This document shows, piece by piece, positions 28,858 through 61,680 of a DNA stretch of 64,000 bases. Positions within the stretch are counted from its first letter, which is position 1. Every line of letters starts with the position of its first letter. The translations under genes were made by a program, and so were the position numbers. Below the pieces are notes generated by a model. The model saw only the letters and a list, made by a program, of their open reading frames with translations. It did not search any database and was not told where the DNA came from. Source of the DNA: a virus (Duplodnaviria; Caudoviricetes); the IMG/VR virus record IMGVR_UViG_2513237266_000002, positions 33,677 to 97,676 of that record. One strand, written 5' to 3'.

Positions 28858-28882
28858 CGGGGCGTTTTTGAGGAATTTTTCT

Positions 28883-45076: not shown

Positions 45077-45458
45077 CAACCAGATTCTTGATACGGCTCG
45101 GTTATGTCTGTCTGAAAATATTGAAAGTGGATTTCGAAGCGCTATTTCAAGGGCATATTACAGCATGCTCCATGAGTCTATAGGCTCACTTACAGCTTTA
45201 CCGCATTTTACTCACGATCATCATAAAAACACTGTGGGTTATATGTGTTCGCCATCTGAGTGTAAAGCAGAGCCATATTCTCCCCAAACGTTAAAATCTT
45301 TAGGTTTTGTTCTTCGTCAATGGAGAGATGCCAGGAATGAAGCTGATTATGATCTCACCAACGTAACCGTTTCTAAAGAAATGGGGCAGGATGCGGTTGA
45401 GGCTGCTGAAATCTACTTTGAAAGATGGGACAAGCTTAAATCAGCGAAAGCCTCGTAG
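45063..45458 (+). CDS. HEPN-domain protein (moron gene 2)
   Basis: RSAISRAYYS and RNEADY motifs. Confidence 0.8.
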   Translation: MPVTSNQILDTARLCLSENIESGFRSAISRAYYSMLHESIGSLTALPHFTHDHHKNTVGYMCSPSECKAEPYSPQTLKSLGFVLRQWRDARNEADYDLTNVTVSKEMGQDAVEAAEIYFERWDKLKSAKAS

Positions 45459-45524: not shown

Positions 45525-46277
45525 ATGGCAGTATCTGACCAGACCCGCAGCGGCGACCTTGCCGAAACATTCAAATCTGAGCGGGAAACCACTAAAAACC
45601 AGATCCGTGTCGCTTTGCCTGGCATTATTCAGTCGTTCGACCCTGACGCGGTGACGGCGGTTGTGCAGCCTGCTATCCGTTACGTTGAAATTGATAACGA
45701 TGGTAACCGCATTACCAAAAATTACCCGCTGCTGGTGGATGTGCCGGTGGTATTTCCGCGCGGCGGGGGATGCACGCTAACGTTCCCGGTTAAATCCGGT
45801 GATGAATGCCTGGTGATTTTCGCCGATCGCTGCATCGATTTCTGGTGGCAGAACGGCGGGGTGCAGGAGCCTGTCGACGACCGGGTGCATGATTTATCGG
45901 ATGCGTTCTGTATCGTCGGTCCTCAGTCTCAGGCTCAGAAAATCAGCGGAATCAGCACGGGGGCCACACAACTGCGCAGCGACGACGGAAGCACGTTCTT
46001 TGAGCTCAACCCCACTACGCAGAAAATTAAAATTGTGGCGCCTGGCGGTCTGGAGGTGGTTACCCCGCTGGCTGACTTCTCGGAGAAAGTCACTATTCAC
46101 GGGCTCCTGTCATGGATGGGCGGCATGGTGGGCTCTGTTGTCTCAGGCGTCGCATCCAAAATTACTGGCGCGGTCGAGTTTATCGGTACCGTCAAAGCAA
46201 ACGGTAAATCTATCGACGATAAACACACTCACGGTGGTGTACAGCACGGCACCAGCAACACAGACGGGGTGAACTGA
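45525..46277 (+). CDS. Baseplate spike (gp138/gpV-like)
   Basis: PGII..D, VPVVFP, GDECL, HDLSD, terminal HTHGGV. Confidence 0.88.
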   Translation: MAVSDQTRSGDLAETFKSERETTKNQIRVALPGIIQSFDPDAVTAVVQPAIRYVEIDNDGNRITKNYPLLVDVPVVFPRGGGCTLTFPVKSGDECLVIFADRCIDFWWQNGGVQEPVDDRVHDLSDAFCIVGPQSQAQKISGISTGATQLRSDDGSTFFELNPTTQKIKIVAPGGLEVVTPLADFSEKVTIHGLLSWMGGMVGSVVSGVASKITGAVEFIGTVKANGKSIDDKHTHGGVQHGTSNTDGVN

Positions 46278-46630
46278 TGCGATACAGGCGTGAAGACGCC
46301 GACGGTGATTACACCTTTGGCAGCGGCGATGATACCTGGCTGATTAACTCTCCGGAGGCAGTGGCGCAGGCCGTGAAAACGCGATTCGAATTATGGTACG
46401 GACAATGGTTCCTCGACACCACAGAGGGAACACCGTGGATTCAGTCTGTGCTCGGTAAGCAGAAGCCGGAAACCTACAACCTGGCGATCCGTAAGCGCAT
46501 CCTCGAAACTCGGGGGGTTAAATCCATTCTCTCTTTCAATACAACAGTGAACACGACGACGCGCCGCGTCCAGTTCTTCGCTGAAATCGACACTCTCTAC
46601 GGAACAACGACAGTAACCAGCGAGGCATAA
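46277..46630 (+). CDS. Baseplate wedge (gp25/W-like)
   Basis: GDYTFG, GQWFLD..GTPW, DTLYG. Confidence 0.8.
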   Translation: MRYRREDADGDYTFGSGDDTWLINSPEAVAQAVKTRFELWYGQWFLDTTEGTPWIQSVLGKQKPETYNLAIRKRILETRGVKSILSFNTTVNTTTRRVQFFAEIDTLYGTTTVTSEA

Positions 46631-46701
46631 ATGGCCCTCAATTTGGACACACTCGGCTTATCGGCAACGGTAACCGCTGAGGGGATCAGTGCGCCTGATT
46701 A
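46631..46701 (+). pseudogene. Baseplate J-like gene, 5' fragment (interrupted by satellite)
   Basis: MALNLDTLGLSATVTAEGISAPDY continues in frame at 58577 after excision. Confidence 0.9.
46685..46701 (+). repeat. Satellite attL core
   Basis: ATCAGTGCGCCTGATTA, identical at 58560-58576; ATCA-N7-TGAT dyad. Confidence 0.95.
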
Positions 46702-46871
46702 TTTTAATATCTATGAATCAATACGTTAACGTTCAATAAAGCGCGGTGTGGCTGGGTTTAGTCCCTGCTTATGGTGTTTGAATCCATTCGATTACTTTCG
46801 TCTATCTGGGGTTCAATTCGCCATAAGTGGGACTACGAAAGAAACCACAGCGGAAGCAGTGATAGGAGCTG

Positions 46872-48104
46872 ATGATGCTTGTTAAACCACTCACCAATGC
46901 AGAAGTTAAGAACGCGAAGCCACAGCTTAAAGATTACAGTCTTCATGATGGGTTTGGACTTCTTCTGTACGTTACTAAGTCAGGCGGTAAATCGTGGCGA
47001 TTCCGCTATGCGCACCCCATAACCGGGAAAAGGCAGACATTCACTATTGGCCGATATCCAGAATTTAGTCTCGCAGAAGCGAGGGAGGCGAGAGAAGAAG
47101 CCAGAAGGAAAGTTGCCCGAGGGATAGATCCAAACGAGGTTAAAAAAGAAGAACTCAGCGACAGACGGAAAAAACATGCGCAGCAGTTTTCTGTTATCGC
47201 TGATAACTGGCTGAAAATAAAAATCACGGAGGGCATCCGCAGCAATACAATTCGAGGCTACGAGGGGGCTTTAAAAACGCTGAATAGTGTTCTTGGTGAC
47301 GAGCCGGTACATAAAATGAATGCCGCCTCAACAATTCAGGCAATGAGAGAGTTTGCCGATCGTCCCGCCTCTGTGGAAAAGATGATAGTTGTGCTCAATT
47401 CGGTAATGGATTATGCGGTAAACACCGGAGTCATTGACCATAATTGCCTGCTAAAAATCGGCAAGGCTTTCCCAGCCAAAAGAAGCGTACCAATGCCCGT
47501 GATGGATAAAGGCAGATTGCCTGTGTTCCTTTCTGAATGGCTGGGGCTGAGTATGTGGGAGCCGATAAGGCTGTGTGTCTACTTCCAGCTTTTAACGATG
47601 GTAAGGCCATCTGAGGCTCGCCTGGCTGTTTGGGACGAAATTGATTTAGACAGTGCTGTCTGGAAAATTCCGGCTGAAAGAATGAAAGGGAAAAGGCCAC
47701 ACGCTGTACCGCTGTCCGCGCAAGCAATAGCAGTTTTACGCAATGCTGAAAAATGGCGTCGCGGGGCGTTTATTTTTCCTTCCGGCAAAAAGGGAGATAA
47801 GCCGATTGGAAAATGTACCGGGCAGATCGCTATTCATAAAACATCGCTAAGCGGAGAGGTTGTTACTCACGGGCTTAGGTCGCTTGCATCAACTGTGCTG
47901 AATGAAGAAGGGTTTAACCCTGATGTTATTGAGGCGGCACTTGCTCACAGAAGCAGGAACGCAATCCGCAATATCTACAATCGTACTGATTACTTTGAAC
48001 AGCGGCGTATGCTCATGCAGTGGTGGGGGGATTATGTCGATAGCGCAGAGCGCGGAGAACTGCTTGAGACAAAGGGCGATAAAGGATTAAGGCTGATTGG
48101 TTAG
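46872..48104 (+). CDS. int: Satellite integrase (P4-type)
   Basis: DGFGLLL..GGKSW..IGRYP..SLAEAR arm domain; VRPSE, HGLR, LAH...Y. Confidence 0.95.
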   Translation: MMLVKPLTNAEVKNAKPQLKDYSLHDGFGLLLYVTKSGGKSWRFRYAHPITGKRQTFTIGRYPEFSLAEAREAREEARRKVARGIDPNEVKKEELSDRRKKHAQQFSVIADNWLKIKITEGIRSNTIRGYEGALKTLNSVLGDEPVHKMNAASTIQAMREFADRPASVEKMIVVLNSVMDYAVNTGVIDHNCLLKIGKAFPAKRSVPMPVMDKGRLPVFLSEWLGLSMWEPIRLCVYFQLLTMVRPSEARLAVWDEIDLDSAVWKIPAERMKGKRPHAVPLSAQAIAVLRNAEKWRRGAFIFPSGKKGDKPIGKCTGQIAIHKTSLSGEVVTHGLRSLASTVLNEEGFNPDVIEAALAHRSRNAIRNIYNRTDYFEQRRMLMQWWGDYVDSAERGELLETKGDKGLRLIG

Positions 48105-48225
48105 TCCTCAAAACTCGACGTTTATTGCTGGCTATATGCCAGATTTTTTATTCCATTCAAACGCCGAAATGTATCTTTTTTATTCATATTTGTTATAATT
48201 GATTCATATATATACGGAGGTTTTT

Positions 48226-48438
48226 ATGTCTGAATCGAATAGTGAAATACTACTTAAAGGCGAGGTTAAAGCGCGACTTCGCTACCGTTCTGATTCTGCG
48301 TTCTATGATTTCCTCAAAGATGAGGGAAACGGTTTTCCGATGCCTTTTAAAGTGGGAGGCCGTAACTGCTGGTATCGTGACGAGGTTGAAGCGTGGATCG
48401 GGAAACAAAGTGAAAAGCGCGGGATCTGTACCGCATGA
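48226..48438 (+). CDS. alpA: AlpA-family regulator/excisionase
   Basis: FPMPFKVGGRNCWYRDEVEAW; GGAGG RBS. Confidence 0.85.
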   Translation: MSESNSEILLKGEVKARLRYRSDSAFYDFLKDEGNGFPMPFKVGGRNCWYRDEVEAWIGKQSEKRGICTA

Positions 48439-48577
48439 AAGCGGAGCAAATAGACGGGGCTTGTTACCGAAAGGGGCAAGCCTTTTTTATTGTCTGTTGC
48501 CAGCAACGGTAACTTACACCAGCCAGAGAAAGGCATTTCATCGGGTAGCGGTGGAATGTTTGCAGAAAAATGCACAA

Positions 48578-48682
48578 AGGTATTCATAGTGTTCATGATT
48601 TGAATATAGGTATTAAAAATCAGATAGATAGGCTATGAACACCTTTATCTAAGGTATTCATAGGGTATTCATAGTGTTCATA
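48578..48682. repeat. Iteron cluster 1 (GTRTTCAT / ATGAAYAC)
   Basis: About 6 copies, e.g. GGTATTCATAGGGTATTCATAGTGTTCAT. Confidence 0.75.
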
Positions 48683-48876
48683 AAGCGTGGATCTTTCCCC
48701 GGAAAAATTCGCCGGATGTTATAAAGCGCTTGCGTCATCATGGCGGGCATGGTTATGATTATTTCGCACCTTATAAAACGGGTGCCGGGTTTGACAGCCT
48801 GAACGTTCAAGCGGGTAGCCGCTAATTTCCGTATAGCGGTATTTTTACGCCCGTATTTCACCTATACCCCGATTTA

Positions 48877-48952
48877 TGGCGGGGCGTGGTGGGGAGGCTT
48901 ACGCCTGCTGGTTTCTTGAACGCCAGTCTGTCAACCCTGCTACGTCTCGCCA
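48877..48952 (+). ncRNA. C4/CI-like antisense immunity RNA
   Basis: TGGCGGGGCGTGG...CTACGTCTCGCCA closing stem; internal CTTGAAC and CTGTCAA complementary to GTTCAAG/TTGACAG upstream (48791-48811) and downstream (48960-48997). Confidence 0.8.
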
Positions 48953-49008
48953 CCCATGTTTGACAGCATCTGGCGAGACTCCTGAAAAATGTTCAAGGAG
49001 CCGCTAAA

Positions 49009-49254
49009 ATGGCTAAACCAACCTGCCCCAAATATACCTGGCTGTTTCTGGCCACACCGAAAAAACACGACTGCACACCAATCGTATTGCGCACAATGGC
49101 TGATACCGAAGAAGAAGCCCGCGATACCTTCCCATGCTGGAACCTGACTTTTGCCGCAAAAATCCGCACTGAAAGCAGCCTGCGTGATTCTGGCTGTGGA
49201 ACTTATGGCCTGAACCTCCTGACTCCGGAAATGCTGGAGGTGCACAATGTTTAA
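49009..49254 (+). CDS. Icd-like cell-division inhibitor
   Basis: [21 protein letters not shown]; follows C4-like RNA. Confidence 0.8.
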
Positions 49255-50125
49255 CCTCCAGACATTGACAGCCAAAGCCCGAGAATTGCGCGGCAACGTG
49301 GTTAAAGCGGTTAGCACTAAGGGCAGTCGCACAATGACGCCAGTTTATGACCGTGACGAACAGCGCAAGCTACGCGAACGCATACAGCAGACGCAACCGG
49401 ATTGGTTGTTGCTCTGGTGGGACATTGCGACCGTAACCGGCTGGCGTACCAGTGACGTTTGCAACCTGCGCTATTCCTGCATCAATTGGGAAACGGGGCA
49501 GGCGACAATTATCGTTGCCAAACAGACCAAAGCTGCTGAAGCGCGGGCAACCCGCAAAGGCATTGAAATCGTGCGCCAGCAGCGCAAGGACGCGGCGAGG
49601 CTTGCCGCTGACCATATCGCCTACATGAAGTGGGACAGCATCAACTGTGACGCGCTGGCAGCGGATATGACCGACGAAGAACAGGCGATAGTATTCGGGC
49701 TGGTGGCTAAAGCTGACGTTAAGCACGACACCAAACAGTTACCGCCTGGCATCATCAAGCGGCTGCGCGAACGTCAGGATCGGAACTTGGTAGAGGACGA
49801 CCTGATATTTTCCCGCTCTCAAATCGAAAGTAACCGTTGTCAACGTCTGGAAGGTAGCGTGACCCGCCAGACCATATGGCGCAAACTCCATGATGTGATG
49901 GCGTGGTTTACCCGCGTTATCAACGCCAAACTGCGTCTGAGCGCTTATTCAAGCCGTAAGATTGCAGCCTTTAACCTCATGTCAGCAGGCGGCGAACAAG
50001 GTTTGTTGGTGGCCTCTGAAATGCTGGGGCATAGCAACCCGGCAATAACACGCACATATCTGCAGTTAGGAAGTAAAGCGGCCGCGATCCAGTCTCGTCT
50101 GGCTATGGAGGTGTGCAATGCGTAA
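49247..50125 (+). CDS. Second satellite tyrosine-recombinase-family protein
   Basis: TGWRTSD, YSSRK, LGHSN..TRTYL. Confidence 0.8.
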
Positions 50126-50300
50126 AACCTTCCAGATTGATGGCTACGCAGTTAACAAACGCGGTCTGACCGTTGGTATTCACTACACCATGACCAGCAC
50201 CGGCCCTGAAACGGCGAAAGATACGGCGCAGCTACTTGCTCAGAAAGGCGGGTATAAACACGTCCGTATTAACTTTGTCCGGGAGGCGAAAAATGCGTGA
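50118..50300 (+). CDS. Small hypothetical protein
   Basis: GGAGG RBS, coupled. Confidence 0.65.
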   Translation: MRKTFQIDGYAVNKRGLTVGIHYTMTSTGPETAKDTAQLLAQKGGYKHVRINFVREAKNA

Positions 50301-50487
50301 GCCAATCAGCTTAGACCAGGCTGAATATAAATCAGCACTGGCCGCTTCACTCTTTGAAACCATTCTGGAAAAAGCCTGTGCTGAATGTTCGGAAACCCTG
50401 CTGAACCATATCTCACTGGCATGTGACCTTAATCAGGAAATTCACCGGGCATTAATCGCTGAGCTGCGCATGGGAGAGACAAAATGA
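50293..50487 (+). CDS. Small hypothetical protein
   Basis: MREPISLDQ start, GGAGG RBS. Confidence 0.65.
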   Translation: MREPISLDQAEYKSALAASLFETILEKACAECSETLLNHISLACDLNQEIHRALIAELRMGETK

Positions 50488-50690
50488 GACAGGTTCCTTT
50501 TGAAGTCCTGATGCACGCCGAAAATGCGCTGGCATACAGCAAACAGGCTCTGGCTATTCTGGAAGTCTGGATGGACTCACTAGGCGAAGGTGACGAACAC
50601 GAATCTAACTGCGTAGCCGCCATTCACAGCCTGGTACATGAATCAAAAGAATACCTGCAAAAAGCCACGGGGGTACAAAGTGCAAAATGA
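50484..50690 (+). CDS. Small hypothetical protein
   Basis: ATGA overlap with upstream gene. Confidence 0.65.
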   Translation: MRQVPFEVLMHAENALAYSKQALAILEVWMDSLGEGDEHESNCVAAIHSLVHESKEYLQKATGVQSAK

Positions 50691-53022
50691 CTTTGTAAGC
50701 GATGTGCGCAGCAGAGCAAATGGCTATTGGCCGTCGATACTTGAACGCCTGGCGATTCCGACTAACCGCAGTGAGGGGCCGTGTCCTGCGTGTGGCGGTA
50801 ATACCCGTTACCGTTTCGACAATAAAGATAACCGGGGAACGTATTTCTGTTCGCACTGTGGCGCGGGTACCGGGCTGGATCTGGTGATGAAGGTCAACCA
50901 GTGCGGCCCGAGAGAAGCGGCTGAGCTGGTGGCCGAAGCTATGACGCTGCCTATGCCGGAACCGAAGCAAGCCAGAGATAAGCCTCAAACGGATATCGCC
51001 GGGAAAGTTGCGGCGCTGGCCGCGAAAGCCTCTCCGGGGCAGTCTGCTTACCTTACATCAAAGGGGCTTCAATGCCCCTTCCCGATGCTGTCCGACGGAT
51101 CGCTGCTGCTGGTGCTGAAAAACGGTGCTGGTGCGGCGACTGGCGCACAGGTGATTAAACCTGATGGCAGTAAGCGGCTGGTGGCCGGAACGGTGAAGAA
51201 AGGCTCTTTTTGCGTAGTTAATTCCGGCGCAACGTCGGAAACGGTGATTATCGCCGAAGGGCTGGCAACGGCGCTTTCGGTTCAGCAGTTCCGCCCTGAT
51301 GCGACAATTATCGCAGCTATTGACGCCGGGAACCTGCTGCCCGTTGCTCAGGTGATGCGCAAAAAATACCCGAACGCGCGGATCATCATTGCTGCAGATA
51401 ATGACCAGAGCGCCGAAAGTGACAGAAGCGGAGAAGTGAAAGTTAACACAGGTAAGGAGTGTGCAGAGAAAGCCGCTAAAGCCGTTGCTGGCTGGGTTTC
51501 TTTGCCCCCTGTGGACTACAAGGCGGACTGGAACGACTACCACCGACAAAACGGACTGGAAGCCGCTATAGCAGCATTTAACGATTCGATGTATCAGCCG
51601 GAGGGGGAAACTGTGGGCGCAAAACTTAAAGTAGTCGATGGCGGTAAAAAGCGCGGGCGCGGAGAAATCAACCTGATCCAGATGGCAGATAATGAAAAAG
51701 CGCTGATGCTGGCAGACCGTTACGAGGGAATAGCCATTCACGCAGAGAGCGAGGCTGTATATCTGTACCGTGAAGGCGTATGGGTAAAAGCAGCGCCATT
51801 AGAATTAAGCCGCGAAATGGTGGCTATCTACAACGAAAATCAGACTAATTTCAGCAAACGCTCAGTAAATAACGTAATTGAAGCATTGAAGATTGTCATT
51901 CCTGTTATGGGCCAGCCTCGCCGGAGCCTGATCCCGTTCAAAAATGGTGTGTACGACATGGAAACCGGGACTTTCTCGCAGCATTCATTAGATAACTGGC
52001 TTACTAACGATAACGGTGTGATCTATACGCCGCCGGAGCCTGGCGAAAATCTTCACGACCATGCGCCAAACTTCCATAAATGGCTAAGTTACACAGCAGG
52101 AAGAGACGCACTTAAAATGAAGCGGATCGCCGCTGGGCTTTTTATGGTGCTGGCGAACCGCTACGACTGGCAGCTTTTTCTTGAGATAACCGGGGAGGGA
52201 GGTAGCGGCAAAAGCGTTTTCACTCACATTGCTACTATGCTGGCTGGCGAACACAACACGGCCAGCGGAAATATGGCCGCACTGGATAGCGCCAGAGGTC
52301 GGGCGCAGTTCGTAGGCAAAAGTATGATAACCCTACCAGACCAGCCAAAATATTCAGGCGAGGGAACGGGTATAAAAGCGATTACGGGCGGCGATGCCGT
52401 AGAGATTGACCCGAAGCATGAACACCAGTACACCGCCGTTCTGAGGGCTGTTGTAGTCGCTACAAACAACACGCCGATGATTTTCACCGAACGGGCCGGA
52501 GGCGTTGCCCGCCGTAGGGTTATTTTTCAGTTTAATAACCGGGTTCGAGAGGAAGACAAAGACCCCGATTTGTCGGAAAAGATATCCGCAGAAATCCCGG
52601 TTATTGTCCGCCGGCTCCTGGCTAACTTTTCTGATCCAGAGAAAGCAAGGGCGCTTTTGTTGGAACAGAGGAACAGTGAAGAAGCGCTGGAGGTTAAACA
52701 GAAAACAGACCCGCTTTATGCTTTCTGCGCATACCTTGAAAAGCTGTCAGAGTGTACGGGAATGCTGGTAGGGAACCGCAATCCGCCTCTCTACCCACGC
52801 GTGTATCTCTATCATGCGTATCTGGCCTTTCTGGAGGCTAACGGATTCGATAAGCCTTTAACACTCAATAAATTTGCTGAGGGCATGGAAAGCGCAATGC
52901 GCGAATTTAACCACGAATACCGGAAAGAGAGAAAGACGCGAGGAGTTGTAACCAACGTGGAACTCTCAGGAAGTGCTGAAGACTGGCTTCCACAGCCTTA
53001 TCCCAATCCCGCCAAGAAGTAA
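50680..53022 (+). CDS. P4 alpha-like primase-helicase
   Basis: CPACGG..CSHCG Zn finger, EGLATA/AADND TOPRIM, GEGGSGKS SF3 helicase, C-terminal winged helix. Confidence 0.93.
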   Translation: MQNDFVSDVRSRANGYWPSILERLAIPTNRSEGPCPACGGNTRYRFDNKDNRGTYFCSHCGAGTGLDLVMKVNQCGPREAAELVAEAMTLPMPEPKQARDKPQTDIAGKVAALAAKASPGQSAYLTSKGLQCPFPMLSDGSLLLVLKNGAGAATGAQVIKPDGSKRLVAGTVKKGSFCVVNSGATSETVIIAEGLATALSVQQFRPDATIIAAIDAGNLLPVAQVMRKKYPNARIIIAADNDQSAESDRSGEVKVNTGKECAEKAAKAVAGWVSLPPVDYKADWNDYHRQNGLEAAIAAFNDSMYQPEGETVGAKLKVVDGGKKRGRGEINLIQMADNEKALMLADRYEGIAIHAESEAVYLYREGVWVKAAPLELSREMVAIYNENQTNFSKRSVNNVIEALKIVIPVMGQPRRSLIPFKNGVYDMETGTFSQHSLDNWLTNDNGVIYTPPEPGENLHDHAPNFHKWLSYTAGRDALKMKRIAAGLFMVLANRYDWQLFLEITGEGGSGKSVFTHIATMLAGEHNTASGNMAALDSARGRAQFVGKSMITLPDQPKYSGEGTGIKAITGGDAVEIDPKHEHQYTAVLRAVVVATNNTPMIFTERAGGVARRRVIFQFNNRVREEDKDPDLSEKISAEIPVIVRRLLANFSDPEKARALLLEQRNSEEALEVKQKTDPLYAFCAYLEKLSECTGMLVGNRNPPLYPRVYLYHAYLAFLEANGFDKPLTLNKFAEGMESAMREFNHEYRKERKTRGVVTNVELSGSAEDWLPQPYPNPAKK

Positions 53023-53028
53023 GCAAAT

Positions 53029-53058
53029 AAAAAGCCCGCGAAAGGAGGCGCGGGCTTT
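53029..53058. terminator. Terminator after primase
   Basis: AAAGCCCGCG...CGCGGGCTTT. Confidence 0.7.
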
Positions 53059-53239
53059 GCTTAGTATCACATTGTGCAATCGGAGAGGGTATGCCTGCCC
53101 TCACAAACTTAGGATAGCAGATATTTAACACTGAATACCACTTTTATAAATTGATTGTTGTGTTTATTACCTGTTTTTATGGTAATGAAGTATAATATCT
53201 GTACCGACAATCCCGTCGAGGTAACAGGACAATCTGACC

Positions 53240-53794
53240 ATGCCAAATCTCAAGCAGTTCAATGCTCAGCCCGTCGCTAACGGTGTCGTAATCACGGCGA
53301 ACTACGACGACGGCAGCACTATTTCCTTTCCTACTGATAAACAATCATCCGATTTTATGACATCTATTGTGCAGGCGCTGGCCTCAGCTAATGACCGTAT
53401 CATTGCTGCTGAAAATCGCGCGGCGGCGGCAAATCGCACGGCTGATCGCATGTACAAGCGGACCGTAGATTCATCCGAAGATGGACTGCCAACAAAAATA
53501 GACCCTCAGTTTATGCGACTGGTTCGTGCTGTATGCCCGCGTTATGACGAGGCCAGCCAAGGAGATGATCCACGGTTGGTCGCCCTTGATGTGCTGCGTT
53601 ATGCGCCAGTAACTGCGTTCAGTGCGGTATGCAATGAATCACTGGCTGATTTGCAACCTAATCGGGCGATAGAAATTCTTGAGCAGGTGGGTGATTACAT
53701 GAAAGCCAACGGCATTGATCCGAAGCCATATACGTCAGCCGATACGATTAGGGCTATCGGCGATTCTGCTAAAAAATTCTGGAGTAAAAAATAA
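53240..53794 (+). CDS. Satellite protein ending in scaffold-like C-terminal motif
   Basis: C-terminus IRAIGDSAKKFWSKK resembles helper [16 protein letters not shown]. Confidence 0.7.
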   Translation: MPNLKQFNAQPVANGVVITANYDDGSTISFPTDKQSSDFMTSIVQALASANDRIIAAENRAAAANRTADRMYKRTVDSSEDGLPTKIDPQFMRLVRAVCPRYDEASQGDDPRLVALDVLRYAPVTAFSAVCNESLADLQPNRAIEILEQVGDYMKANGIDPKPYTSADTIRAIGDSAKKFWSKK

Positions 53795-53795
53795 T

Positions 53796-53981
53796 ATGTC
53801 ACGATTCATTACCCGATCAGAACGAGAAGCAATGCGAGCGCGTAGAACGACTGATAGTGAACGAGCAAACATTCAGAATATCAATCAGGCCAATAAAGAT
53901 TTTTGGGAACAGAAAAAAACGGAAGAAAAAGATAGGTTGGCCGTGATTAACAGACACCTTTTTCCCTACGGTAAATTTTAA
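53796..53981 (+). CDS. 61-aa satellite protein with scaffold-like motif
   Basis: TTDS...IQNINQANKDFWEQKK; GGAG RBS; starts 1 bp after upstream stop. Confidence 0.65.
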   Translation: MSRFITRSEREAMRARRTTDSERANIQNINQANKDFWEQKKTEEKDRLAVINRHLFPYGKF

Positions 53982-54025
53982 CCCCACAGCCCGGAGATTA
54001 GTCCGGGTTTGCTTTTTTAAGGAGC

Positions 54026-55099
54026 ATGAATATGTCACAAAACTGGATGCGTCACTTTGAATTACAACTGGTGGACGACAACGGGCAAGGTATTGAACTC
54101 AGCGATTTCAAAGTGACCTTCACGATCGACTGGTTCAACATCAGCAGCGCGTCGCGGGTGGGTACGTTCAAAATCTACAACCTGTCGGCTGATACGGTGA
54201 ACCGAATCACCGGGCAGGAGTTTTCGAAAGTGCGTCTGATTGCGGGCTATGACGGCATCGCGCCGGAAGTGTCGGCCAGCAGCGTCGGAACGGCGCGAGA
54301 AGTCGATGCGGCGGACGTGGGCCAGAGTGATGGCCGGAACTACGGACTGATTTTCAGCGGAGAAATTCGCTACTCGGTCACAGGTAAAGACAGCCCCATT
54401 GATTCCTACGTCCTGATTCAGGCAGCCGATACGGATCTGGCTTTTGCTACCAGCATAACCTCGCAGACGCTGGCAGCCGGCTACACGACAGAAGACATGT
54501 TCAATCTTTTAATGAAAGACTTTGAGGCCAAAGGCGCAACTGTGGGTCGCACTCCAGTATTCCCCCCTACAGTGTTCCCTCGGGGCCGCGCACTGTTTGG
54601 CATGACCAGACACCTGATGGACAACGTGGCCGCACAATGCGGAGCGACCTGGCAGTTCGTGGACGGACAGCTAAATATGCTGCCAGAAGGTGAGTATATG
54701 CACGACGCGATTGTGCTCAACAGCGCCACCGGACTGATCGGGATGCCGCAGCAGACCATCGGCAACGGCGTGAACGTTCGCGCACTGATTAACCCGAATA
54801 TTCGAATTAACGGGCTCATTCAGCTGGATCAACGTTCCGTGTATCGCACCGCGTTGTCAAACAACGATATCGCGATGGCTGGCGGGCAGATCACCGACCA
54901 GAATACGGACGGCAATATCACGCTCAGCGGCACCACAGCGCAGCCTGCCAGCATCGCAACAGATGGCGTTTATGTTGTGAAAGGCATTATGTACACTGGC
55001 GACACAAGGGGCCAGGCGTGGTACATGGATATGATGTGCGAAGCGCGTGGCGCGGCGGATCTTAATTCAAAATCTTATTTCGATAAAACGAGTGGCTAA
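54026..55099 (+). CDS. Baseplate hub protein (satellite allele)
   Basis: Near-identical to 42734-43801 except a few patches and the C-terminus. Confidence 0.9.
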   Translation: MNMSQNWMRHFELQLVDDNGQGIELSDFKVTFTIDWFNISSASRVGTFKIYNLSADTVNRITGQEFSKVRLIAGYDGIAPEVSASSVGTAREVDAADVGQSDGRNYGLIFSGEIRYSVTGKDSPIDSYVLIQAADTDLAFATSITSQTLAAGYTTEDMFNLLMKDFEAKGATVGRTPVFPPTVFPRGRALFGMTRHLMDNVAAQCGATWQFVDGQLNMLPEGEYMHDAIVLNSATGLIGMPQQTIGNGVNVRALINPNIRINGLIQLDQRSVYRTALSNNDIAMAGGQITDQNTDGNITLSGTTAQPASIATDGVYVVKGIMYTGDTRGQAWYMDMMCEARGAADLNSKSYFDKTSG

Positions 55100-55446
55100 T
55101 GATAACTGCATTAAAAACATTCTGTGCATTTGCAATATTCTTATCTTTATCAGCTAATGCTGCTTTCTTATGTGGTAGCTGGAAACTAACGGGTAATGAT
55201 GATGGCTGGGTTAGGGTAAATGGTGAGAAGGTAACTTCCCAAAAAGTTAAAGAATTAGGCGCGAAAGGTGATGGTGCTAACACTGTTTGGAATATGGGCC
55301 TGATGCCAGCGCGTGACGGGAACAATTACGGCTTTGAGTTCGTGAAGCGCAAAGGAAAAGCTTTCCTGAACGTCCAACTGCTGCAGAACAGCATGGACGC
55401 GCCGAGAATCATCGGATCTTTCCCGTGTAAAAAAGTTCCTGATTAA
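55099..55446 (+). CDS. Exported small protein (satellite allele)
   Basis: Signal peptide; C-terminal half nearly identical to 43801-44154. Confidence 0.85.
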   Translation: MITALKTFCAFAIFLSLSANAAFLCGSWKLTGNDDGWVRVNGEKVTSQKVKELGAKGDGANTVWNMGLMPARDGNNYGFEFVKRKGKAFLNVQLLQNSMDAPRIIGSFPCKKVPD

Positions 55447-55512
55447 AGCAGAGACTTAGCGGCATATTAGTAACACCTTATGTTAATAAAATGTTTCTAT
55501 TGAGGCGACAGG

Positions 55513-55619
55513 CATGAACACCTATGTACACTTATGAAGGGTTGTGAATACTGGTGTTCATGCTTTATCTTTATGAATAATATGGTTAATATCGCGAATA
55601 TGAATACCATGAACACCTT
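55513..55619. repeat. Iteron cluster 2 (ATGAAYAC)
   Basis: ATGAACACC, TGAATACTGGTGTTCAT, ATGAATACCATGAACACC; same motif as cluster 1. Confidence 0.7.
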
Positions 55620-55811
55620 GAGAGCAAGTTCTCTAAAACGCGCCCTAAATGCAACACTTACAGTATAAAAACCATTTTTATAGTTCAAAAAAGAATATGC
55701 ATTAACAATTTATTATCATTTGGTTTGGCGGCATTTATAAGCTTTTACGCACAGAAAATAACCATCTTGTTAGCCGTATTAAATGTCAGACGTGAGGAAC
55801 GGTAACTTAAA

Positions 55812-56396
55812 ATGAAAAATAGCGTTACTAATGCAAACTCCTGCTCTGATACGCAGGAAATTGAAAGTTTACCTGCATACAGACAGGCGCTGGCCGATGA
55901 CGCTGTAAGTAATAAGGTGTCTGCTGTAGAACGTATCCGGGCAAGGTTGGCGCTTCTGGAGAGCTATATTCCTGATTCGCCTGTGCCACAAGACGAGGTA
56001 GCCGAATTTCGTGGCCGCATCACCGGATTACTCGGTGAACTGGAGGTGGGCGGTAAACGCGGCACTGTACTGATTCATGCACATCGAAAATTACGCGATT
56101 TAGAGGATCGGATTTACATTCCTGTACGCCGGATGGCCGCTGAACAGTTTGACCAACTGCGCCGGGAAAAACCGGACATGACGGGCGATGTATTACTGAA
56201 AACTCTGCTGGGCGATGAAATTGGCGAATATCAGACGAGAAACCCGGAGGCGTCAAAAATAGCCACTCTGGCCGCGCTTATGAGGTCATCACCCCGTGTG
56301 GATATTCTCATCAACATGATCCGCCAGCGAAATGATGAGCATACGGTAGCAGTGTTTAGCTGGTGTCCTCTGGAATTACCTTTGCAGGGTGTGTAG
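55812..56396 (+). CDS. Hypothetical satellite protein
   Basis: 194-aa ORF upstream of third recombinase. Confidence 0.7.
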   Translation: MKNSVTNANSCSDTQEIESLPAYRQALADDAVSNKVSAVERIRARLALLESYIPDSPVPQDEVAEFRGRITGLLGELEVGGKRGTVLIHAHRKLRDLEDRIYIPVRRMAAEQFDQLRREKPDMTGDVLLKTLLGDEIGEYQTRNPEASKIATLAALMRSSPRVDILINMIRQRNDEHTVAVFSWCPLELPLQGV

Positions 56397-56404
56397 GGGG
56401 AAAC

Positions 56405-57430
56405 ATGGCATCTATCCGTGAGATTGGCTCGGGAAAGCGCCTGCGTTATGTCGTTAACTGGCTGGATAAAGAAAACCGCACCGGGCGACGCAATACCTTT
56501 CACAGCATCGACGATGCGGCGGCGCTGCTGTATCAACTGGAAGTGGCAGCCCTTGACTGGCGAACGGCAGACAATGCGGAGGCGGTAAAACGCTGGACGC
56601 TGCAGAAACTGTCTTGGTTCTGGCTGGGATATCAGCGCGACAGGCTGAACCGGAACAGGATCAGGGCAACCAGTTACGACCGCTACCGCTATTGCCTGCT
56701 AAACCTTCCGTCTGACCTGCTGAATAAAAACCTGAATAAAATCACTTCACGCCAACTTAGCGAGCGGCTTAACCGACAGTCGCTTGTGTACATCGGCGCG
56801 GCTTTTGCTTATCTCATGCGTTCCGGGATGATTGCTCATAATCCGGTTCGCCAGAGCCGATCACCGGCAGACAGGCCGTGGCAAATCCCGGATGAAGATA
56901 CCGTGTTAGCCATGCTGGATCGCGCAGAGCGGCGCGAAAGGATTGCTATCTGGCTGGGCGCGGCTTGCGGCCTGCGTATCAGCGAAGTGCTGGCGTTAAC
57001 CTATCGGGATGTGAGCGCTGACGAAATACAGGTTCGCTGCCATCTGACTTCACGCGGGATTATCCGGGGCAGAAAGCGCGGCAGGGGCCGTTCCGTCGAT
57101 ATGCCGGTTGGCCTGTATGAGTGCCTCGATAAAACGCTGCTGGGAACGGATACACCGCTGATTGCCGGGAGCAACGGACAGAGGCTGAGCCTGAACTACA
57201 GCACATCCGGCGTGATGAAACGCCTGCTCTCTGAATTCGGGATAGAGCGCTTTCATGACCTGAGGCATTTTGCGGTGTCCAGCCTGGTAAAAAACGGCGT
57301 TGATATTCTGGACGTGTCGGACATGGTGGGCCACTCCCGGCCGTCGGTGACGTTGAATATTTACGGGCATCTTTTCCGCGAAAAACCGTCACTCAAGAAC
57401 GCTCTGAGAGGAGGGGTAAGGAGAATATAG
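56405..57430 (+). CDS. Third satellite tyrosine recombinase, homologue of helper 26833-27837
   Basis: Shared MASI, GRR..F..IDDAA, WT..KL..F.LGYQ, RERIA.WLG, RFH.LRHFAVS.L...GVDIL, YGHLF. Confidence 0.9.
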   Translation: MASIREIGSGKRLRYVVNWLDKENRTGRRNTFHSIDDAAALLYQLEVAALDWRTADNAEAVKRWTLQKLSWFWLGYQRDRLNRNRIRATSYDRYRYCLLNLPSDLLNKNLNKITSRQLSERLNRQSLVYIGAAFAYLMRSGMIAHNPVRQSRSPADRPWQIPDEDTVLAMLDRAERRERIAIWLGAACGLRISEVLALTYRDVSADEIQVRCHLTSRGIIRGRKRGRGRSVDMPVGLYECLDKTLLGTDTPLIAGSNGQRLSLNYSTSGVMKRLLSEFGIERFHDLRHFAVSSLVKNGVDILDVSDMVGHSRPSVTLNIYGHLFREKPSLKNALRGGVRRI

Positions 57431-57496
57431 TAAACTCCTTACTTTCCCGGTGTGATGCGGGTTCATCGACTGAAAGCGACGATCTAGCCATTTTTG

Positions 57497-57637
57497 GATA
57501 ATACCGCACTTTTTCACGCTTTCCGGACGGGTGAGCAACAAAATGCGGAGAAATGAGGAATGACGCGGCCTGTAGCCCGACAAAGTGCGGCATATCACAT
57601 GAGCGCAGGCCGCATTCTACCGTTATCGATACGCCGC
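57497..57637. repeat. Satellite counterpart of helper repeat site
   Basis: AAGTGCGGCATATCA (57583) is the exact reverse complement of helper 27954-27968; GACGCGGCCTG 57562; GATACGCCGC 57628. Confidence 0.75.
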
Positions 57638-57700
57638 GGACTTTTTGAGGGTTCGTGAGCACGTCCCGTTTTTTGCCGATGGTGGACAGAGTGAGGAAAA

Positions 57701-58225
57701 ATGAACGTTTTAGCAGCCGCTGAAAATGGCTTCCGGTTTAAGGGGATCTGGTGGACGGAGGAGACCTTTACTGACGTATTGCGCACGGTACTGAACCTGC
57801 ACCGTGCTATGAGTAATCACCGGGTGGCTTTTCACTTTGGAGTTTCTGAAAAAGCCGTCAGGAAATTGAGAGCACGCAGCGATACCGCCAATGGGGTGAT
57901 ACTGCGCCTGATGGAAGAAGCGAAACTCAGCAGTAGCAGGCCAGCACAGTATCGCGAACGCAACTGGTACAACAATTACCCGGAAGACATCGAGGCCAGA
58001 AAAATACTGATAGCCGCAGAGGAGGAAAGGGAAAGGCAGCGGGTAGTTCGACATGAGCAGCGAAAGCAGAGAACGCGCCGGGTTACTGATGGTGCTCTAC
58101 GTCTTGAGCGGATTAGAGCGCAGCGGCGTGAGGCGGTACAATGCTGTAAACGGTCAGGATTAACTCAGGTGCTGGCAGCAGAAAGCCTGTCATGTTCGCT
58201 AAGTACTGTCCGGCGGTACTGGTGA
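57701..58225 (+). CDS. Double-HTH protein; N-terminal HTH resembles helper TerS
   Basis: SNHRVAFHFGVSEKAVRKLR vs SNRMVAQRLGVDETTIRRWR; C-terminal TQVLAAESLSCSLSTVRRYW. Confidence 0.7.
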   Translation: MNVLAAAENGFRFKGIWWTEETFTDVLRTVLNLHRAMSNHRVAFHFGVSEKAVRKLRARSDTANGVILRLMEEAKLSSSRPAQYRERNWYNNYPEDIEARKILIAAEEERERQRVVRHEQRKQRTRRVTDGALRLERIRAQRREAVQCCKRSGLTQVLAAESLSCSLSTVRRYW

Positions 58226-58277
58226 ATGTTGAGCGACCGTAGCCGTTAAGTTTCACTTCTGGTAATGAGTAACTTAC

Positions 58278-58466
58278 ATGCTGAAATCTGATGTGATTGA
58301 GTCTGCAATAGCAGAGATGTTAACAAAGCAAGGGCGAGATTTAGACGCTACTGACATGCTGGAGATACGCCGTAGGGTAGCTGGATCGCTCGCCGCAAAG
58401 GAAAGGCACCGCCAGCGCATGACAGCCCCGGAATATCGCTGGAACAAGCCTGCACCCCGCAGATAG
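58278..58466 (+). CDS. Small basic hypothetical protein
   Basis: Last ORF before attR. Confidence 0.6.
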   Translation: MLKSDVIESAIAEMLTKQGRDLDATDMLEIRRRVAGSLAAKERHRQRMTAPEYRWNKPAPRR

Positions 58467-58559
58467 TAATTTGCACACCTAAGAGCAGTTAACGGACTAG
58501 ATTCCCACTACAAATAAAATAAAAGCCATATATATCAATAGCATTATCATTGTTATTGA

Positions 58560-58576
58560 ATCAGTGCGCCTGATTA
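58560..58576 (+). repeat. Satellite attR core
   Basis: ATCAGTGCGCCTGATTA. Confidence 0.95.
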
Positions 58577-59705
58577 CCAGACGATACTCGATACCCTGAC
58601 GAGCTATTTCCAGCAGATTTATGGTAGTGACGCTTATCTGGAGCCAGACAGCAAAGACGGTCAGATGGTGGCACTGGTGGCGCTGGCTATCCATGATGCC
58701 AATAACACGGCTATTTCCGTCTATAACTGCTTTTCTCCTGCCACAGGGTATGGCGCCGCGTTGACCAGCAACGTGAAAATTAACGGCATCGCGCGCAAAG
58801 GGGCGACGAACTCTACTGTGGATCTGGTGCTGGCTGGCACTGCAGGGACAACTATCACGAACGGTACCGTAAAAGACACCAATAACGTGATCTGGCGTCT
58901 TCCTGCCTCGGTGGTGATTGGTGTCGACGGTACGGTGACGGTAACGGCCACCTGTTCCAACAGCGGGGCAGTTGCCGCGCTGGCCGGGACTATCACCACT
59001 ATCAACACCCCGACCCGAGGCTGGACATCTGTGATCAATCCAGCGGCGGCCACCGTCGGAGCACCGGCAGAAACCGACGCAGAGCTGCGCATCCGGCAGG
59101 GGCAGAGTGTCGCGCTACCCTCTGTAACACCGTTTGAAGGTGTCGACGGTGCGATCGCTAACGTTGCTGGTGTGACACGTCACAAGCTCTACGAGAATGA
59201 CACTGGCGCTACCGACAGTAATGGGCTTCCGCCACATTCTATCTCTGCCATCGTTGACGGTGGCGACGTAACGGACATTGCTCAGACAATCCGGGGCAAC
59301 AAGGGGCAGGGAACGGCGACCTATGGGACGACCTCTGTCACGGTACCTGACACTTACGGCAATCCGCACGTGATCAGTTTTTCGCGCTCGACTGATGTCC
59401 CGATTTTCGGGCATATCACTCTGAAAGCCTTTACGGGCTACACGTCGCAAATTGGCGTACAGATTCAGCAGGCCGTCGCGGATTACATCAACGGGCTGAC
59501 GATCGGTGATTCAGTTCTGCTGAGTCGCATATACTCCCCGGCTAACCTGGGCGTGGTCAGTGGTGGCAGTGCTCGTTATTACGACATTCAGGAACTGCTA
59601 ATTGGCAAATCAGCCGGAACTGTAGCGGCGGCAAATATCAACATTGCATACAACGAGTCAGCATCCTGTAAGCCTGAAAATATTGTTCTAACGGTGACGT
59701 CATGA
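58560..59705 (+). pseudogene. Baseplate J-like gene, 3' part (399 aa when rejoined)
   Basis: ISAPDYQTILD..DSKDGQMV..; ETDAELRIR, PPHSI..VDGG baseplate-J motifs. Confidence 0.9.
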
Positions 59706-60382
59706 GCAAGTACACGGACTTAATCACCAACTATCACGCCACTAAGCCCAGGTTCTTTGATCACGTAGACCTGAGCACACGTCCATTGATTGATATCACT
59801 GCGGCCACCAGGGGGATGGTGAGCGCTTTTGATATCGATACAGCCGTCGGTGTACAGCTCGATATTCTCGGTCTGTGGATCGGGCGCAGTCGCATAGTCA
59901 GCCAGCCGATCAGTGGCGTTTATTTCAGCTGGGACACTGACGGGCTTGGATATGACCAGGGCATCTGGCAGGGGCCATATGATCCTGATTCTGGCTATAC
60001 GATGCTAAGTGATGAGACGTACCGCATCATTCTGAAAGCGAAAATCGCTATCAACAACTGGGACGGCCGGAACGATTCTCTGCCTCCCATCCTTGACGCT
60101 GCGACTGCAGGCTCAGGCCTGAAGATGCAGATCGTCGACAACCAGGATATGACGATATCGGTCTGGGTATTCCCCGAGACTGATATTTCTGATGTGTCAC
60201 TCGAACTGATAGCTGCTATCAAACAGGGCTATCTCACCGTTAAAGCTACTGGCGTATGGGCCGGTGATGTTGAAACGCCTTCGGTAGAAGCACCATCCGA
60301 GGGTTCTAAATTATTTGGGTTTGATATGGATAACGAATACATCGGCGGGTTCGATGTTGGAGCATGGGGGACAATACTCTAA
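59702..60382 (+). CDS. Baseplate protein (DUF2612)
   Basis: FDIDTAVGVQLDILGLWIG, LSDETYR, DNQDMT. Confidence 0.85.
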   Translation: MSKYTDLITNYHATKPRFFDHVDLSTRPLIDITAATRGMVSAFDIDTAVGVQLDILGLWIGRSRIVSQPISGVYFSWDTDGLGYDQGIWQGPYDPDSGYTMLSDETYRIILKAKIAINNWDGRNDSLPPILDAATAGSGLKMQIVDNQDMTISVWVFPETDISDVSLELIAAIKQGYLTVKATGVWAGDVETPSVEAPSEGSKLFGFDMDNEYIGGFDVGAWGTIL

Positions 60383-61680
60383 TGGCAATAAACAACTTTA
60401 AACCGTTCGCGACAGCAGCAAATGCTAACGTGACGGCCCAGGCTGACTGGGAAACGCTTCCTGCTCTACTCTCTGGCTTTATGGCAGGAAAGGCATCCAG
60501 TGCGCAGGTAAACAAAGCCATTCGACAGGCCAGCTTTATAGCGGCAGCGCTGGCGCAGTACACCGCTAACAAAAGCGGGCTGGACGTGCTTGATGATGGT
60601 GACCTGAACGGGTTTGTCTCCAAAATGGGGACCGCTTTTGGGAAGGATTTCCAGGCGCTTGATGCCACTCTGACGGCATTGGCTGGGCTCGCAACCGGTG
60701 CAAATAAACTCCCGTATTTCACAGGGACTGATACAGCAGCGCAGACTGATTTAACTTCTGTTGGTCGTGACATTATCGGGAAAAGCACTATTGCTGACAT
60801 TCTCACATACCTTGGTTTTCCAGAATTAGGCATCGCAGGTACCGGAAACATACTGCCATCACTTGACTGGCAGCAGTTTAATTTTGTCCCCGGAGCAAGA
60901 TATTTCATAAAATCGTCTGACATGAGTAATGTACCGGCACAGATTGTTATTACTCAGCCAACATTTAATGCTGTCATGGATGTTATTGGATATGACGGTA
61001 TAACCCGACATGTGGACATCTGGTTCTCATCGACACCGGATGAGTATTTTAGTCGTTATCAGGTCATGATTGCAGGGCATCAGGGCTCAAGAACATTCTC
61101 TGTGCGCAGAATCTGGACCTCATCTGAGCCTGTCCCTTTATCTGGAGGTGGAACCGGGGCATCTACACCTGCTGGAGCTCGATCCAATTTAGAGCTTGGC
61201 GGTCTTTCCGTTGAAGACATTGCCCCAATAAATAAGGGAGGTACCGGAGCAGACAACGTCAGTTCCGCTCTTAATAATTTTGGTATTGGCCCAATAGCAA
61301 ACGCCTCAGAAGTTACTGCGGGTACGTCGAAAAAGCTGATAGACGCCGCATTGCTGAAAGCATTTCTTCCGAAGCGGAGTTTTCAGGCTAATGATGTCAT
61401 AAGAATACCAGACCAACCTGGTGGGCTGATGGTTCAGTTTGGGACGCTGACAGGTGTCAGTGGCTCAGATGTTATTTCTTCAACTCTCACTTTCCCTGAA
61501 TTATTTCCCAACGCATGCCTTGCCGTCATCCCTGTTGCAGTTTCTTCGGATACGGGGGGAGGGATGGTCGGTGTTCAGGTAAAGACACTGACCCGCTCAA
61601 ATGCTGACATTTTTATTTACGAAAGAAACGGTGGAGCTATTACTACTCACAGCGTTCAGTATATAGCTATCGGATGGTGA
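60382..61680 (+). CDS. Tail fibre protein (constant N-terminus + invertible C-terminus)
   Basis: NNFKPFA anchor, GGTGA repeats, PGGLMVQFG..FPNAC..YIAIGW tip. Confidence 0.9.
   Translation: MAINNFKPFATAANANVTAQADWETLPALLSGFMAGKASSAQVNKAIRQASFIAAALAQYTANKSGLDVLDDGDLNGFVSKMGTAFGKDFQALDATLTALAGLATGANKLPYFTGTDTAAQTDLTSVGRDIIGKSTIADILTYLGFPELGIAGTGNILPSLDWQQFNFVPGARYFIKSSDMSNVPAQIVITQPTFNAVMDVIGYDGITRHVDIWFSSTPDEYFSRYQVMIAGHQGSRTFSVRRIWTSSEPVPLSGGGTGASTPAGARSNLELGGLSVEDIAPINKGGTGADNVSSALNNFGIGPIANASEVTAGTSKKLIDAALLKAFLPKRSFQANDVIRIPDQPGGLMVQFGTLTGVSGSDVISSTLTFPELFPNACLAVIPVAVSSDTGGGMVGVQVKTLTRSNADIFIYERNGGAITTHSVQYIAIGW
60800..60825 (+). repeat. Invertase crossover site (gix/hix-like), left
   Basis: TTCTCACATACC-TT-GGTTTTCCAGAA. 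Confidence 0.8.

Follow-up and report, generated by a model that had tools for sequence, protein, structure and literature searches.

A putative packaging recognition site shared by a SEN34-like temperate myovirus and the satellite embedded in its baseplate gene

Introduction

In phage P1, Cre/loxP is placed near pac, and SaPIs, the pac-type phage-inducible chromosomal islands (PICIs) of Gram-positive bacteria, encode their own small terminase (TerS). A packaging site compatible with that of the helper is a known strategy of P4, of cos-type PICIs (EcCICFT073 cos) and of 11capE (PMC6739421, PMC10111431), and the R elements of lambda cosB, together with Rpp, are precedents for the system described here (PMC6739421). 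In 11capE, a PICI embedded in its helper, a 258-bp cos region is common to satellite and helper (PMC10111431); the helper-embedded PICIs of that study have lambdoid helpers, and the term "baseplate" does not occur in it. Here we analyze a 64,000-nucleotide window, bases 33677-97676 of a 97.7-kb IMG/VR provirus record (IMGVR_UViG_2513237266_000002), in which a satellite lies inside a late gene of a temperate myovirus, its helper. Both elements carry a module made of a tyrosine recombinase gene, an intergenic spacer with repeated boxes, and a gene in the terS position; in the satellite this module (56405-58225) ends in a gene at 57701 for a protein of 174 amino acids (aa).

The satellite module resembles several of these systems without matching any one of them. 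As in lambda cosB, read by gpNu1, and in the cos mimicry of P4, EcCICFT073 and 11capE, short boxes are repeated just upstream of terS and are predicted sites of the N-terminal helix-turn-helix (HTH) of TerS; as in other cos- or pac-mimicking satellites, a helper-compatible copy of the site lies near the attR end of the satellite. Unlike the lambda, P4 and 11capE systems, this one involves a different TerS family and SEN34-like myovirus helpers, and a tyrosine recombinase accompanies the site in phage and satellite alike (an island described below, L091, is excepted; L numbers are our own labels for loci). Box sharing here takes the form of short, exactly matching words within a rearranged, long-form arrangement, and not of a 90%-identical block as in 11capE, and the satellite site retains helper-type boxes, whereas EcCICFT073 has a different cosB.

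The proteins of the module show a similar mixture of likeness and difference. Like Cre/loxP of P1, the module pairs an extra tyrosine recombinase, distinct from the integrase, with a single candidate inverted-repeat site of ~30 bp beside the packaging start, but it shows no detectable specific kinship to Cre and also occurs in a satellite. As with SaPI TerS, a satellite-encoded TerS paralogue belongs to the packaging module, and long forms that keep the C-terminal motif of TerS (as in the L092 island) could act in the same way; unlike SaPI TerS, the 174-aa form in the window lacks that motif, and its central region is replaced by a coiled coil and an HTH. Compared with Rpp (PMC6739421), the 174-aa protein is likewise small, with a TerS-like DNA-binding domain and a long helix, and is encoded beside the packaging site of a satellite without canonical terS or terL. 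It differs from Rpp in having a second, C-terminal HTH and no sequence or fold match to RppC, and in belonging to a family that visibly descends from the TerS family described here.

Results

In both elements of the window, a recombinase gene is followed by a spacer of 244-270 bp and then by a gene for an HTH protein. The first-pass annotation of this DNA had described this matching order and had called the two recombinases full-length but diverged homologues; both statements hold, with 45% identity between the recombinases over 328 aa (E=3e-87). Its claim that the two spacers share exact motifs is also borne out, with expected counts of 0.00-0.33. The 15-mer TGATATGCCGCACTT lies at 27954-27968 (+) in the helper spacer and at 57583-57597 (-) in the satellite spacer, two matches where 0.00 were expected in the window, and the 11-mer GACGCGGCCTG lies at 27981-27991 and 57562-57572 (0.02 expected in the window). 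The word GATACGCCGC is likewise exact in both elements, and all three shared words stand far above chance. The pattern GATAYGCCGC occurs six times in the window against an expectation of 0.33, with three occurrences in the helper intergenic region and two in that of the satellite. The flanks of the shared words fail to align in a self-blastn comparison, and the 15-mer is inverted between the elements; thus, recent copying of a block is not the source of the identity.

The helper module recurs widely. In IMG/VR, a relative is encoded on 266 stretches; we examined the best 79 loci, and our comparison of boxes and HTHs covers ~75 phage loci. The recurrent order is lysis genes, tyrosine recombinase, a ~245-bp spacer, a 200-aa HTH protein and the large terminase gene, terL. 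Modules of the helper type were found in phage YP3, in a phage deposited as "Elizabethkingia" EKP1 and in at least 70 IMG/VR loci, and the Sodalis phage-plasmid phiSG1 has the same arrangement in diverged form (24% identity). In the window, the helper recombinase (334 aa; 26833-27837, +) is encoded between the lysis genes and the gene for the 200-aa protein (28082-28684, +), with terL (28868-30499; phrog_2) directly downstream. The helper spacer has three parts: an inverted repeat, ATAGTGGA-n13-TCCACTAT, 10 bp past the recombinase stop codon; a conserved stretch that includes TGCGGCCT and AAATCGCAGTTTT; and repeated boxes that vary between lineages (GATATGCCGCA, GATATGTCGCA, AAYTCCGCA, TTCCGAG or TTCCGAA). 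The three helper boxes, h1 (27929-27941), h2 (27954-27968) and h3 (28011-28023), sit 59-153 bp upstream of terS; with a half box (27998-28009) and the 11-mer, they occupy 27929-28023 on the + strand.

The class of the boxes follows the HTH of the 200-aa protein without exception across the ~75 phage loci. All 36 loci with the HTH signature GVDETTIRRWR have GCCGCA boxes (28 distinct spacers), and all 28 loci with the signature [E/G/Q][I/V]DEATIRNWR have TCCGCA boxes, so that the two main classes combined are consistent in 64 of 64 loci, "IRRW" going with GCCGCA and "IRNW" with TCCGCA. Rarer variants change in concert as well. In L069, which has DEIT in the helix, all three boxes are altered to GTCGCA. 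The pair L081 and L082 differs at two HTH positions and in all four boxes (SNN..VNE with four TCCGAA boxes versus SNH..VDE with TCCGCA boxes). Loci L012 and L065 have TTCCGAG boxes and a related small HTH open reading frame (ORF) in common, while their recombinases are 42% and 73% identical to that of the helper. Conversely, recombinases 97-99% identical to the helper's are found beside either GCCGCA or TCCGCA boxes. In sliding comparisons against L014 and L034, the helper shows an identity of 90-100% over the recombinase gene and inverted repeat, 47-67% in the box region, 67-85% over about codons 1-120 of terS, and 87-98% from 28450 into terL. By these comparisons, the boxes and the DNA-binding domain of TerS appear to form a specificity cassette. 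Because box class tracks the TerS HTH and varies beneath near-identical recombinases, the boxes would be sites of the protein in the TerS slot, not of the recombinase, and for the shared motifs the most likely role is that of TerS recognition boxes within a pac/cos-type site. An earlier proposal had been that the shared motifs let the satellite recruit or redirect the helper terminase or recombinase; the correlation across ~75 loci sustains its terminase half and speaks against the other.

We call the 200-aa protein TerS on several grounds: it always stands immediately before terL (>70 phages); a comparison of mosaic blocks shows its C-terminal third, which has a conserved motif at residues 125-165, to be inherited together with the start of terL; its HTH, which contains the recognition helix VDETTIRRWRKE, matches TerS PHROGs, to which domain those matches are confined; its structural model shows a weak Foldseek likeness to the small terminases 2ao9 and 3zqq; and the small HTH ORFs of its relatives L012 and L065 weakly match the Sf6 small-terminase family. 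Co-inheritance with the start of terL also makes the C-terminal motif the likely TerL-facing part of the protein. A profile search of PDB sequences with TerS returned nothing useful.

The satellite spacer (57431-57700, 270 bp) contains four boxes upstream of the gene in the TerS slot. It is colinear with a long form of the site (292-294 bp) found in phages L010, L011 and L022, in which box A (forward) and box B (reverse) are followed by a GCGGYCTGTAGCC element, box C (reverse), CAGSCCGCATTCYACCGTT and box D (forward); the helper's own site is a short form. Satellite box A (GGATAATACCGCACTTTTT; 57496-57514, +), the first TerS-type box of the long form, is colinear with box A of L010 and L022. 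Box B (AAAATGCGGAGAAATG on the + strand; 57540-57555, -) belongs to the TCCGCA class, and its 13-nt core TGCGGAGAAATGA is identical in L010, a phage of the other specificity class. The 11-mer (57562-57572, +) forms an 8-bp inverted repeat with 57606-57613 and has the same relative place in the phage sites; it is a possible candidate for a cut site or a host-factor site. Box C (57583-57597, -) is an exact inverted copy of helper box h2. Downstream of it lie CAGGCCGCATTCTACCGTT (57606-57624, +), the most conserved stretch of the long form and near-invariant in an alignment (A4) of satellites, two other islands and phage L010, and box D (GATACGCCGC; 57628-57637, +), which equals the core of helper box h3.

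This layout accounts for the orientation of the 15-mer, which is inverted relative to the helper because the satellite has the long form, like L022, and the helper the short one. A simple inversion of the segment was ruled out as the cause, given that the 11-mer keeps its orientation and that L022, a phage with a normal long form, has the same box C in the same inverted orientation. L022 belongs to the TerS class of the helper, and its boxes C and D are almost identical to those of the satellite. With box B in the TCCGCA class, as in L010, and boxes C and D in the helper class, the satellite site therefore combines both classes as a hybrid. In a relative of the satellite, L094, whose recombinase is 91% identical, box C is replaced by ATAACTCCGCATTTT, the first box of TCCGCA-class phages. 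Box C thus changes class between satellite relatives while the recombinase is nearly constant. Across genera, identity is ~98% for the recombinase gene, 88.6-99.3% for the site and 80-97% for the gene of the 174-aa protein; in L087 and L089, conservation of the site lies below that of the recombinase gene and above that of the 174-aa gene. The simplest reading of these patterns is that the satellite spacer would be a functional packaging recognition site kept compatible with the helper TerS, and that the satellite can probably enter helper capsids.

Two further features of satellite sites may be mentioned here. Just upstream of the 57701 start, at 57640-57690, a hairpin (GGGTTCGTGAGCACGTCCC) is followed by the T run TTTTTT; its outline is conserved among the satellites, and it may be an attenuator or terminator that gates expression of the TerS-slot gene. 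In Enterobacter ludwigii CP006580.1 (L091 8788-10516), a different island, with a DUF927 primase, ProQ and SSB, carries a packaging-type site and a 171-aa homologue of the 174-aa protein. This island has an SprT-like gene in the recombinase position and retains just one half (CATAGTGGAAAT) of an inverted repeat of the helper type, so the recombinase is dispensable for the pairing of site and HTH gene.

The satellite recombinase (341 aa; 56405-57430, +) matches the Pfam family Phage_integrase (PF00589, E=1e-18), and its ~98% nucleotide identity holds for both Enterobacter and Citrobacter copies. The catalytic residues R191, K224, H284, R287, H310 and Y320 are invariant in alignment A1, and R, K, H-x-x-R, H and Y are present in both recombinases of the window. 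No specific relationship to Cre was detected; the nearest models were of Xer and integron-integrase types, far below cut-off. Phages in which the recombinase adjoins the packaging start have large terminases of at least two types, and in our searches of the literature we came across no account of a pairing between a tyrosine recombinase and terS.

Each of the two recombinases is accompanied by a perfect inverted repeat of its own. In the satellite, the 8-bp repeat GTAAGGAG-n11-CTCCTTAC (57416-57442) spans the recombinase stop codon and is a candidate lox-like core; it occurs in a single copy, and none of 300 shuffled sequences gave such a repeat. The helper repeat (27847-27875), a candidate core site, is also present in a single copy in the 97.7-kb record (5/300 shuffles). 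The two have the same position and geometry but different arms. Perfect repeats at the 3' end of the recombinase gene, with arms of 7-8 bp and a spacer of 11-13 nt, were found in four lineages, each with its own arm sequence (helper ATAGTGGA, satellite GTAAGGAG, L073 ATTAAGGT, L092 TAAAGGA; 0-6/300 shuffles each). An invertible switch was ruled out: a single copy of the repeat per element argues against inversion and fits recombination on a concatemer or on terminal redundancy. A role as terminator is unlikely, with loops of 11-13 nt, AT-rich stems and, in the helper copy, no T run. The lineage-specific repeats suggest a Cre/lox-like role for the recombinases in cyclization or monomerization.

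The 174-aa protein (57701-58225, +) is a short form within a TerS-derived family. In its AlphaFold2 (AF2) model (pLDDT 80), a beta-hairpin and HTH (residues 10-59) are followed by a long helix of 55 residues (97-151) and a second HTH (156-173). Weak HTH signals fall at residues 28-55 (PHROG) and 135-173 (Sigma70_r4), in keeping with the earlier description of this protein as having a TerS-like HTH plus a second one, although the kinship to TerS emerges through longer family members and not through BLASTP. BLASTP of the protein against the helper TerS found no similarity, tblastn against 50,697 phage records gave no match, and Foldseek against the PDB returned nothing at E<=0.001, RppC included. 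A PDB sequence search with the family gave, at E<=10, just unrelated HTH proteins and no likeness to RppA, RppB or RppC.

The family is tiny, with 18 clusters at 90% identity and ~10 representative clusters among 1.84 billion proteins. Most of its representatives are long forms of 205-244 aa, and at least seven of these have a C-terminal segment that shares 38-56% identity with TerS residues 125-168 (E 1e-6 to 4e-9; hhalign E=7.8e-6). One long form also matches the TerS HTH, and the HTHs of the family and of TerS align in register. The long forms with this TerS segment therefore indicate that the family descends from the TerS family of these phages. The form in the window ends right after the second HTH and lacks the C-terminal motif of TerS; its reading frame stays open in at least 15 clusters, every one of which terminates in RYW. 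By sequence and fold, the protein stands outside the Rpp family. By analogy, a role as an Rpp-like adaptor or competitor is plausible.

The element that carries this module is a PICI-like satellite embedded in its helper. From ~11 kb onward, the window is occupied by a temperate myovirus that has the Salmonella phage SEN34 and the Yersinia phage YP3 among its relatives. In a comparison with SEN34, window segments 46277-46701 and 58560-60816 are contiguous in the phage, and the 11.9 kb between them is an insertion in the baseplate-J gene, which is truncated by the satellite inserted within its codons. The whole satellite (46685-58576, +) is flanked by a 17-bp direct repeat, ATCAGTGCGCCTGATTA, at 46685-46701 and 58560-58576. 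It encodes a P4-type integrase, a second recombinase-like protein and a Toprim/D5 primase-helicase, and carries a duplicate of the baseplate hub pair of the helper that has diverged to 79% nucleotide identity; the block of recombinase, spacer and HTH protein is a further part of the insert. Since it is an integrase/primase island in a late gene of the helper, bounded by direct repeats, "satellite" and "helper" are fair labels. Like other helper-embedded PICIs, it is small, co-oriented with the helper late gene in which it lies, and equipped with a helper-type packaging site. The same element occupies the identical insertion place in Enterobacter asburiae, Citrobacter and other assemblies (L087, L088, L089/L090, L175-L177), and Citrobacter CP101051.1 holds a tandem pair of satellite copies.

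Other genes of the satellite and helper vary among relatives. The late region of the satellite (window 53240-56396; L087 4247-7743; L088 4813-7787; L177 13994-17026) is a variable set of tail parts, in which a baseplate-hub copy and its 115-aa partner are constant and a spike-like protein (xxxxx_N/Apex), a tail-fibre assembly protein or a 274-aa protein is added depending on the member; it looks like cargo for remodelling of the tail or host range. In the early region, upstream of the primase, a 292-aa protein (49247-50125) with a weak Phage_integrase match is the product of a third recombinase-like gene within the 12-kb element; it is kept in every member of the satellite family seen, and the exact L087 version occurs on 24 contigs. 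Compared with SEN34, the helper has an insert of two genes (44303-45458; products of 257 and 131 aa) that separates the baseplate hub pair from the spike. These two genes are present in relatives L175 and L176 and missing from others.

Several relatives of the helper module are also unusual. In L012 (7278-9684) and L065 (7203-9694), the TerS-type HTH is a separate ORF of 109-125 aa, followed by a second HTH protein of 190-204 aa and a different large terminase (Terminase_6N/6C in L012); in these loci, the DNA-recognition domain of TerS seems to move as an independent module. The recombinase-site-TerS block of L003 (OM284015.1, "Elizabethkingia phage EKP1") ranges from 77% (protein) to near-identical (spacer) when compared with enterobacterial prophages, and the stated Flavobacteriia host of EKP1 looks doubtful. 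In L002 (PV092592.1, YP3), the terS region at ~34.4-35.4 kb is distant from the recombinase and terL (18-20.7 kb), and tail segments are repeated, which suggests that the record is misassembled or a rearranged linear form.

Discussion

We consider it reasonably probable that 57431-57700 is a satellite copy of the packaging recognition site (pac or cosB type) of SEN34/YP3-like temperate myoviruses, accompanied by a recombinase and a TerS-derived partner with roles of their own. In this model, the repeated boxes (core GATAYGCCGCA) would be read by the N-terminal HTH of the helper small terminase, and the helper terminase would be able to start packaging on satellite DNA because satellite boxes fall in the specificity class of the resident helper. 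The recombinase travels with the packaging site, together with its own candidate inverted-repeat site, and would join directly repeated copies of that repeat. For the phage, the outcome would be circles made from terminally redundant DNA; for the satellite, headful concatemers of its 11.9-kb genome would be resolved into monomers, a task that Cre/loxP performs in P1. Such monomerization would be especially useful for an 11.9-kb satellite in heads of ~40 kb, and presupposes headful packaging. The 174-aa protein would bias the choice of site toward the satellite, perhaps by pairing with the helper TerS as Rpp does.

Several points weigh against this model. The boxes adjoin the N-terminus of TerS, so that linkage may explain part of the covariation, and autoregulatory operators would covary with the HTH in the same way. 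Satellite boxes A and B fall outside the helper's class, and the match of box class between helper and satellite was checked in one pair, that of the present record; a GTDB scan yielded just one short satellite contig. The inverted repeat is imperfect or was not found in five other lineages (L012, L064, L070, L081 and phiSG1). The 200-aa protein has no Pfam or NCBIfam family above cut-off, and Foldseek of its model against the PDB gave no match at E <= 0.001. Finally, the study of SEN34 did not determine its packaging mode, pac or cos (PMC5261728).

The main rival to a packaging site is that the boxes are operators through which the HTH proteins in the TerS slot of helper (28082) and satellite (57701) control transcription of their own genes or of late genes, in which case the shared motifs would reflect regulatory cross-talk. 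The boxes do lie in a promoter-proximal spacer directly upstream of the HTH genes, where operators and packaging sites would be equally expected to covary with the HTH; the second HTH of the 174-aa protein resembles sigma70 region-4; and site and HTH gene stay together in L091 even without the recombinase. We nevertheless regard operators as rather unlikely, given a 200-aa protein that directly precedes terL in >70 phages with a C-terminal motif co-inherited with the terL start, its matches to TerS PHROGs and, weakly, to small-terminase structures, the weak Sf6-family matches of the L012 and L065 HTH ORFs, and the lack of any convincing overlap of sigma-70 promoters with the boxes above the chance level. 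The module could instead be an inert relic, with the satellite descended from a phage of this family, or having captured a piece of one, and its recombinase, site and truncated TerS paralogue playing no part in transfer. This would fit the homology of the whole block to the phage block and the 174-aa form's lack of the TerS C-terminal motif. Against it, the catalytic residues are intact, copies from Enterobacter, Citrobacter and metagenomes remain highly similar in recombinase gene and site while identity in the adjoining 174-aa gene is down to 80-85% in L087 and L089, that gene still keeps its open frame and RYW ending in all those clusters, and box C of L094 has switched class, not decayed. 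We judge a relic to be improbable.

A recombinase-based explanation fares worst. Here, the boxes would be arm-type or accessory sites of the tyrosine recombinases, and the satellite would recruit or redirect the helper recombinase, the hijack route proposed in the first-pass annotation. A homologous recombinase is indeed encoded immediately upstream in both elements, and integrase arm sites are typically short repeats beside int. Against this, both box classes occur beside phage recombinases that are 97-99% identical, and in satellites box C is swapped in L094 under a 91% identical one; L012 and L065 have boxes in common despite widely different recombinases; L091 retains boxes without any recombinase; and each recombinase lineage has a separate inverted repeat. 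We therefore regard the proposal that the recombinase reads the motifs as unsupported, and consider arm-type sites highly improbable.

A bolder extension of the packaging-site model, which we offer tentatively and think more doubtful than the model itself, is that enterobacterial temperate myoviruses possess a portable packaging-start cassette (Cre-like recombinase, lox-like site, TerS boxes and TerS gene) that was captured by baseplate-embedded satellites. TerS would there have been remade as a tail-less adaptor with two HTHs, which would pair with the helper TerS to retarget the terminase, converging on Rpp from another origin; the recombinase would make monomer circles, and the hybrid boxes would exploit both TerS specificities.

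What is new here is the satellite copy of the site, the finding that box C occurs in two classes among relatives of the satellite, the long and short layouts of the site, and the TerS ancestry of the 174-aa protein. The comparison of boxes and HTHs yields a readable and testable code for TerS-box recognition, in which a single position of the box answers to one or two residues of the helix and for which natural swaps exist in phages and satellites alike; packaging-site codes of this kind are rarely available. Helper-embedded satellites are extended from lambdoid siphoviruses to myoviruses, with the layout of the packaging module included. The association of the packaging start with a second tyrosine recombinase is undescribed and widespread, with >260 relatives in IMG/VR as well as examples in the phage-plasmid phiSG1 and in satellites. 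If the recombinase is indeed Cre-like, this pairing would explain how headful phages, and satellites packaged from concatemers, recircularize without host recombination, and the TerS-derived 174-aa protein is a candidate for a new way to redirect terminase.

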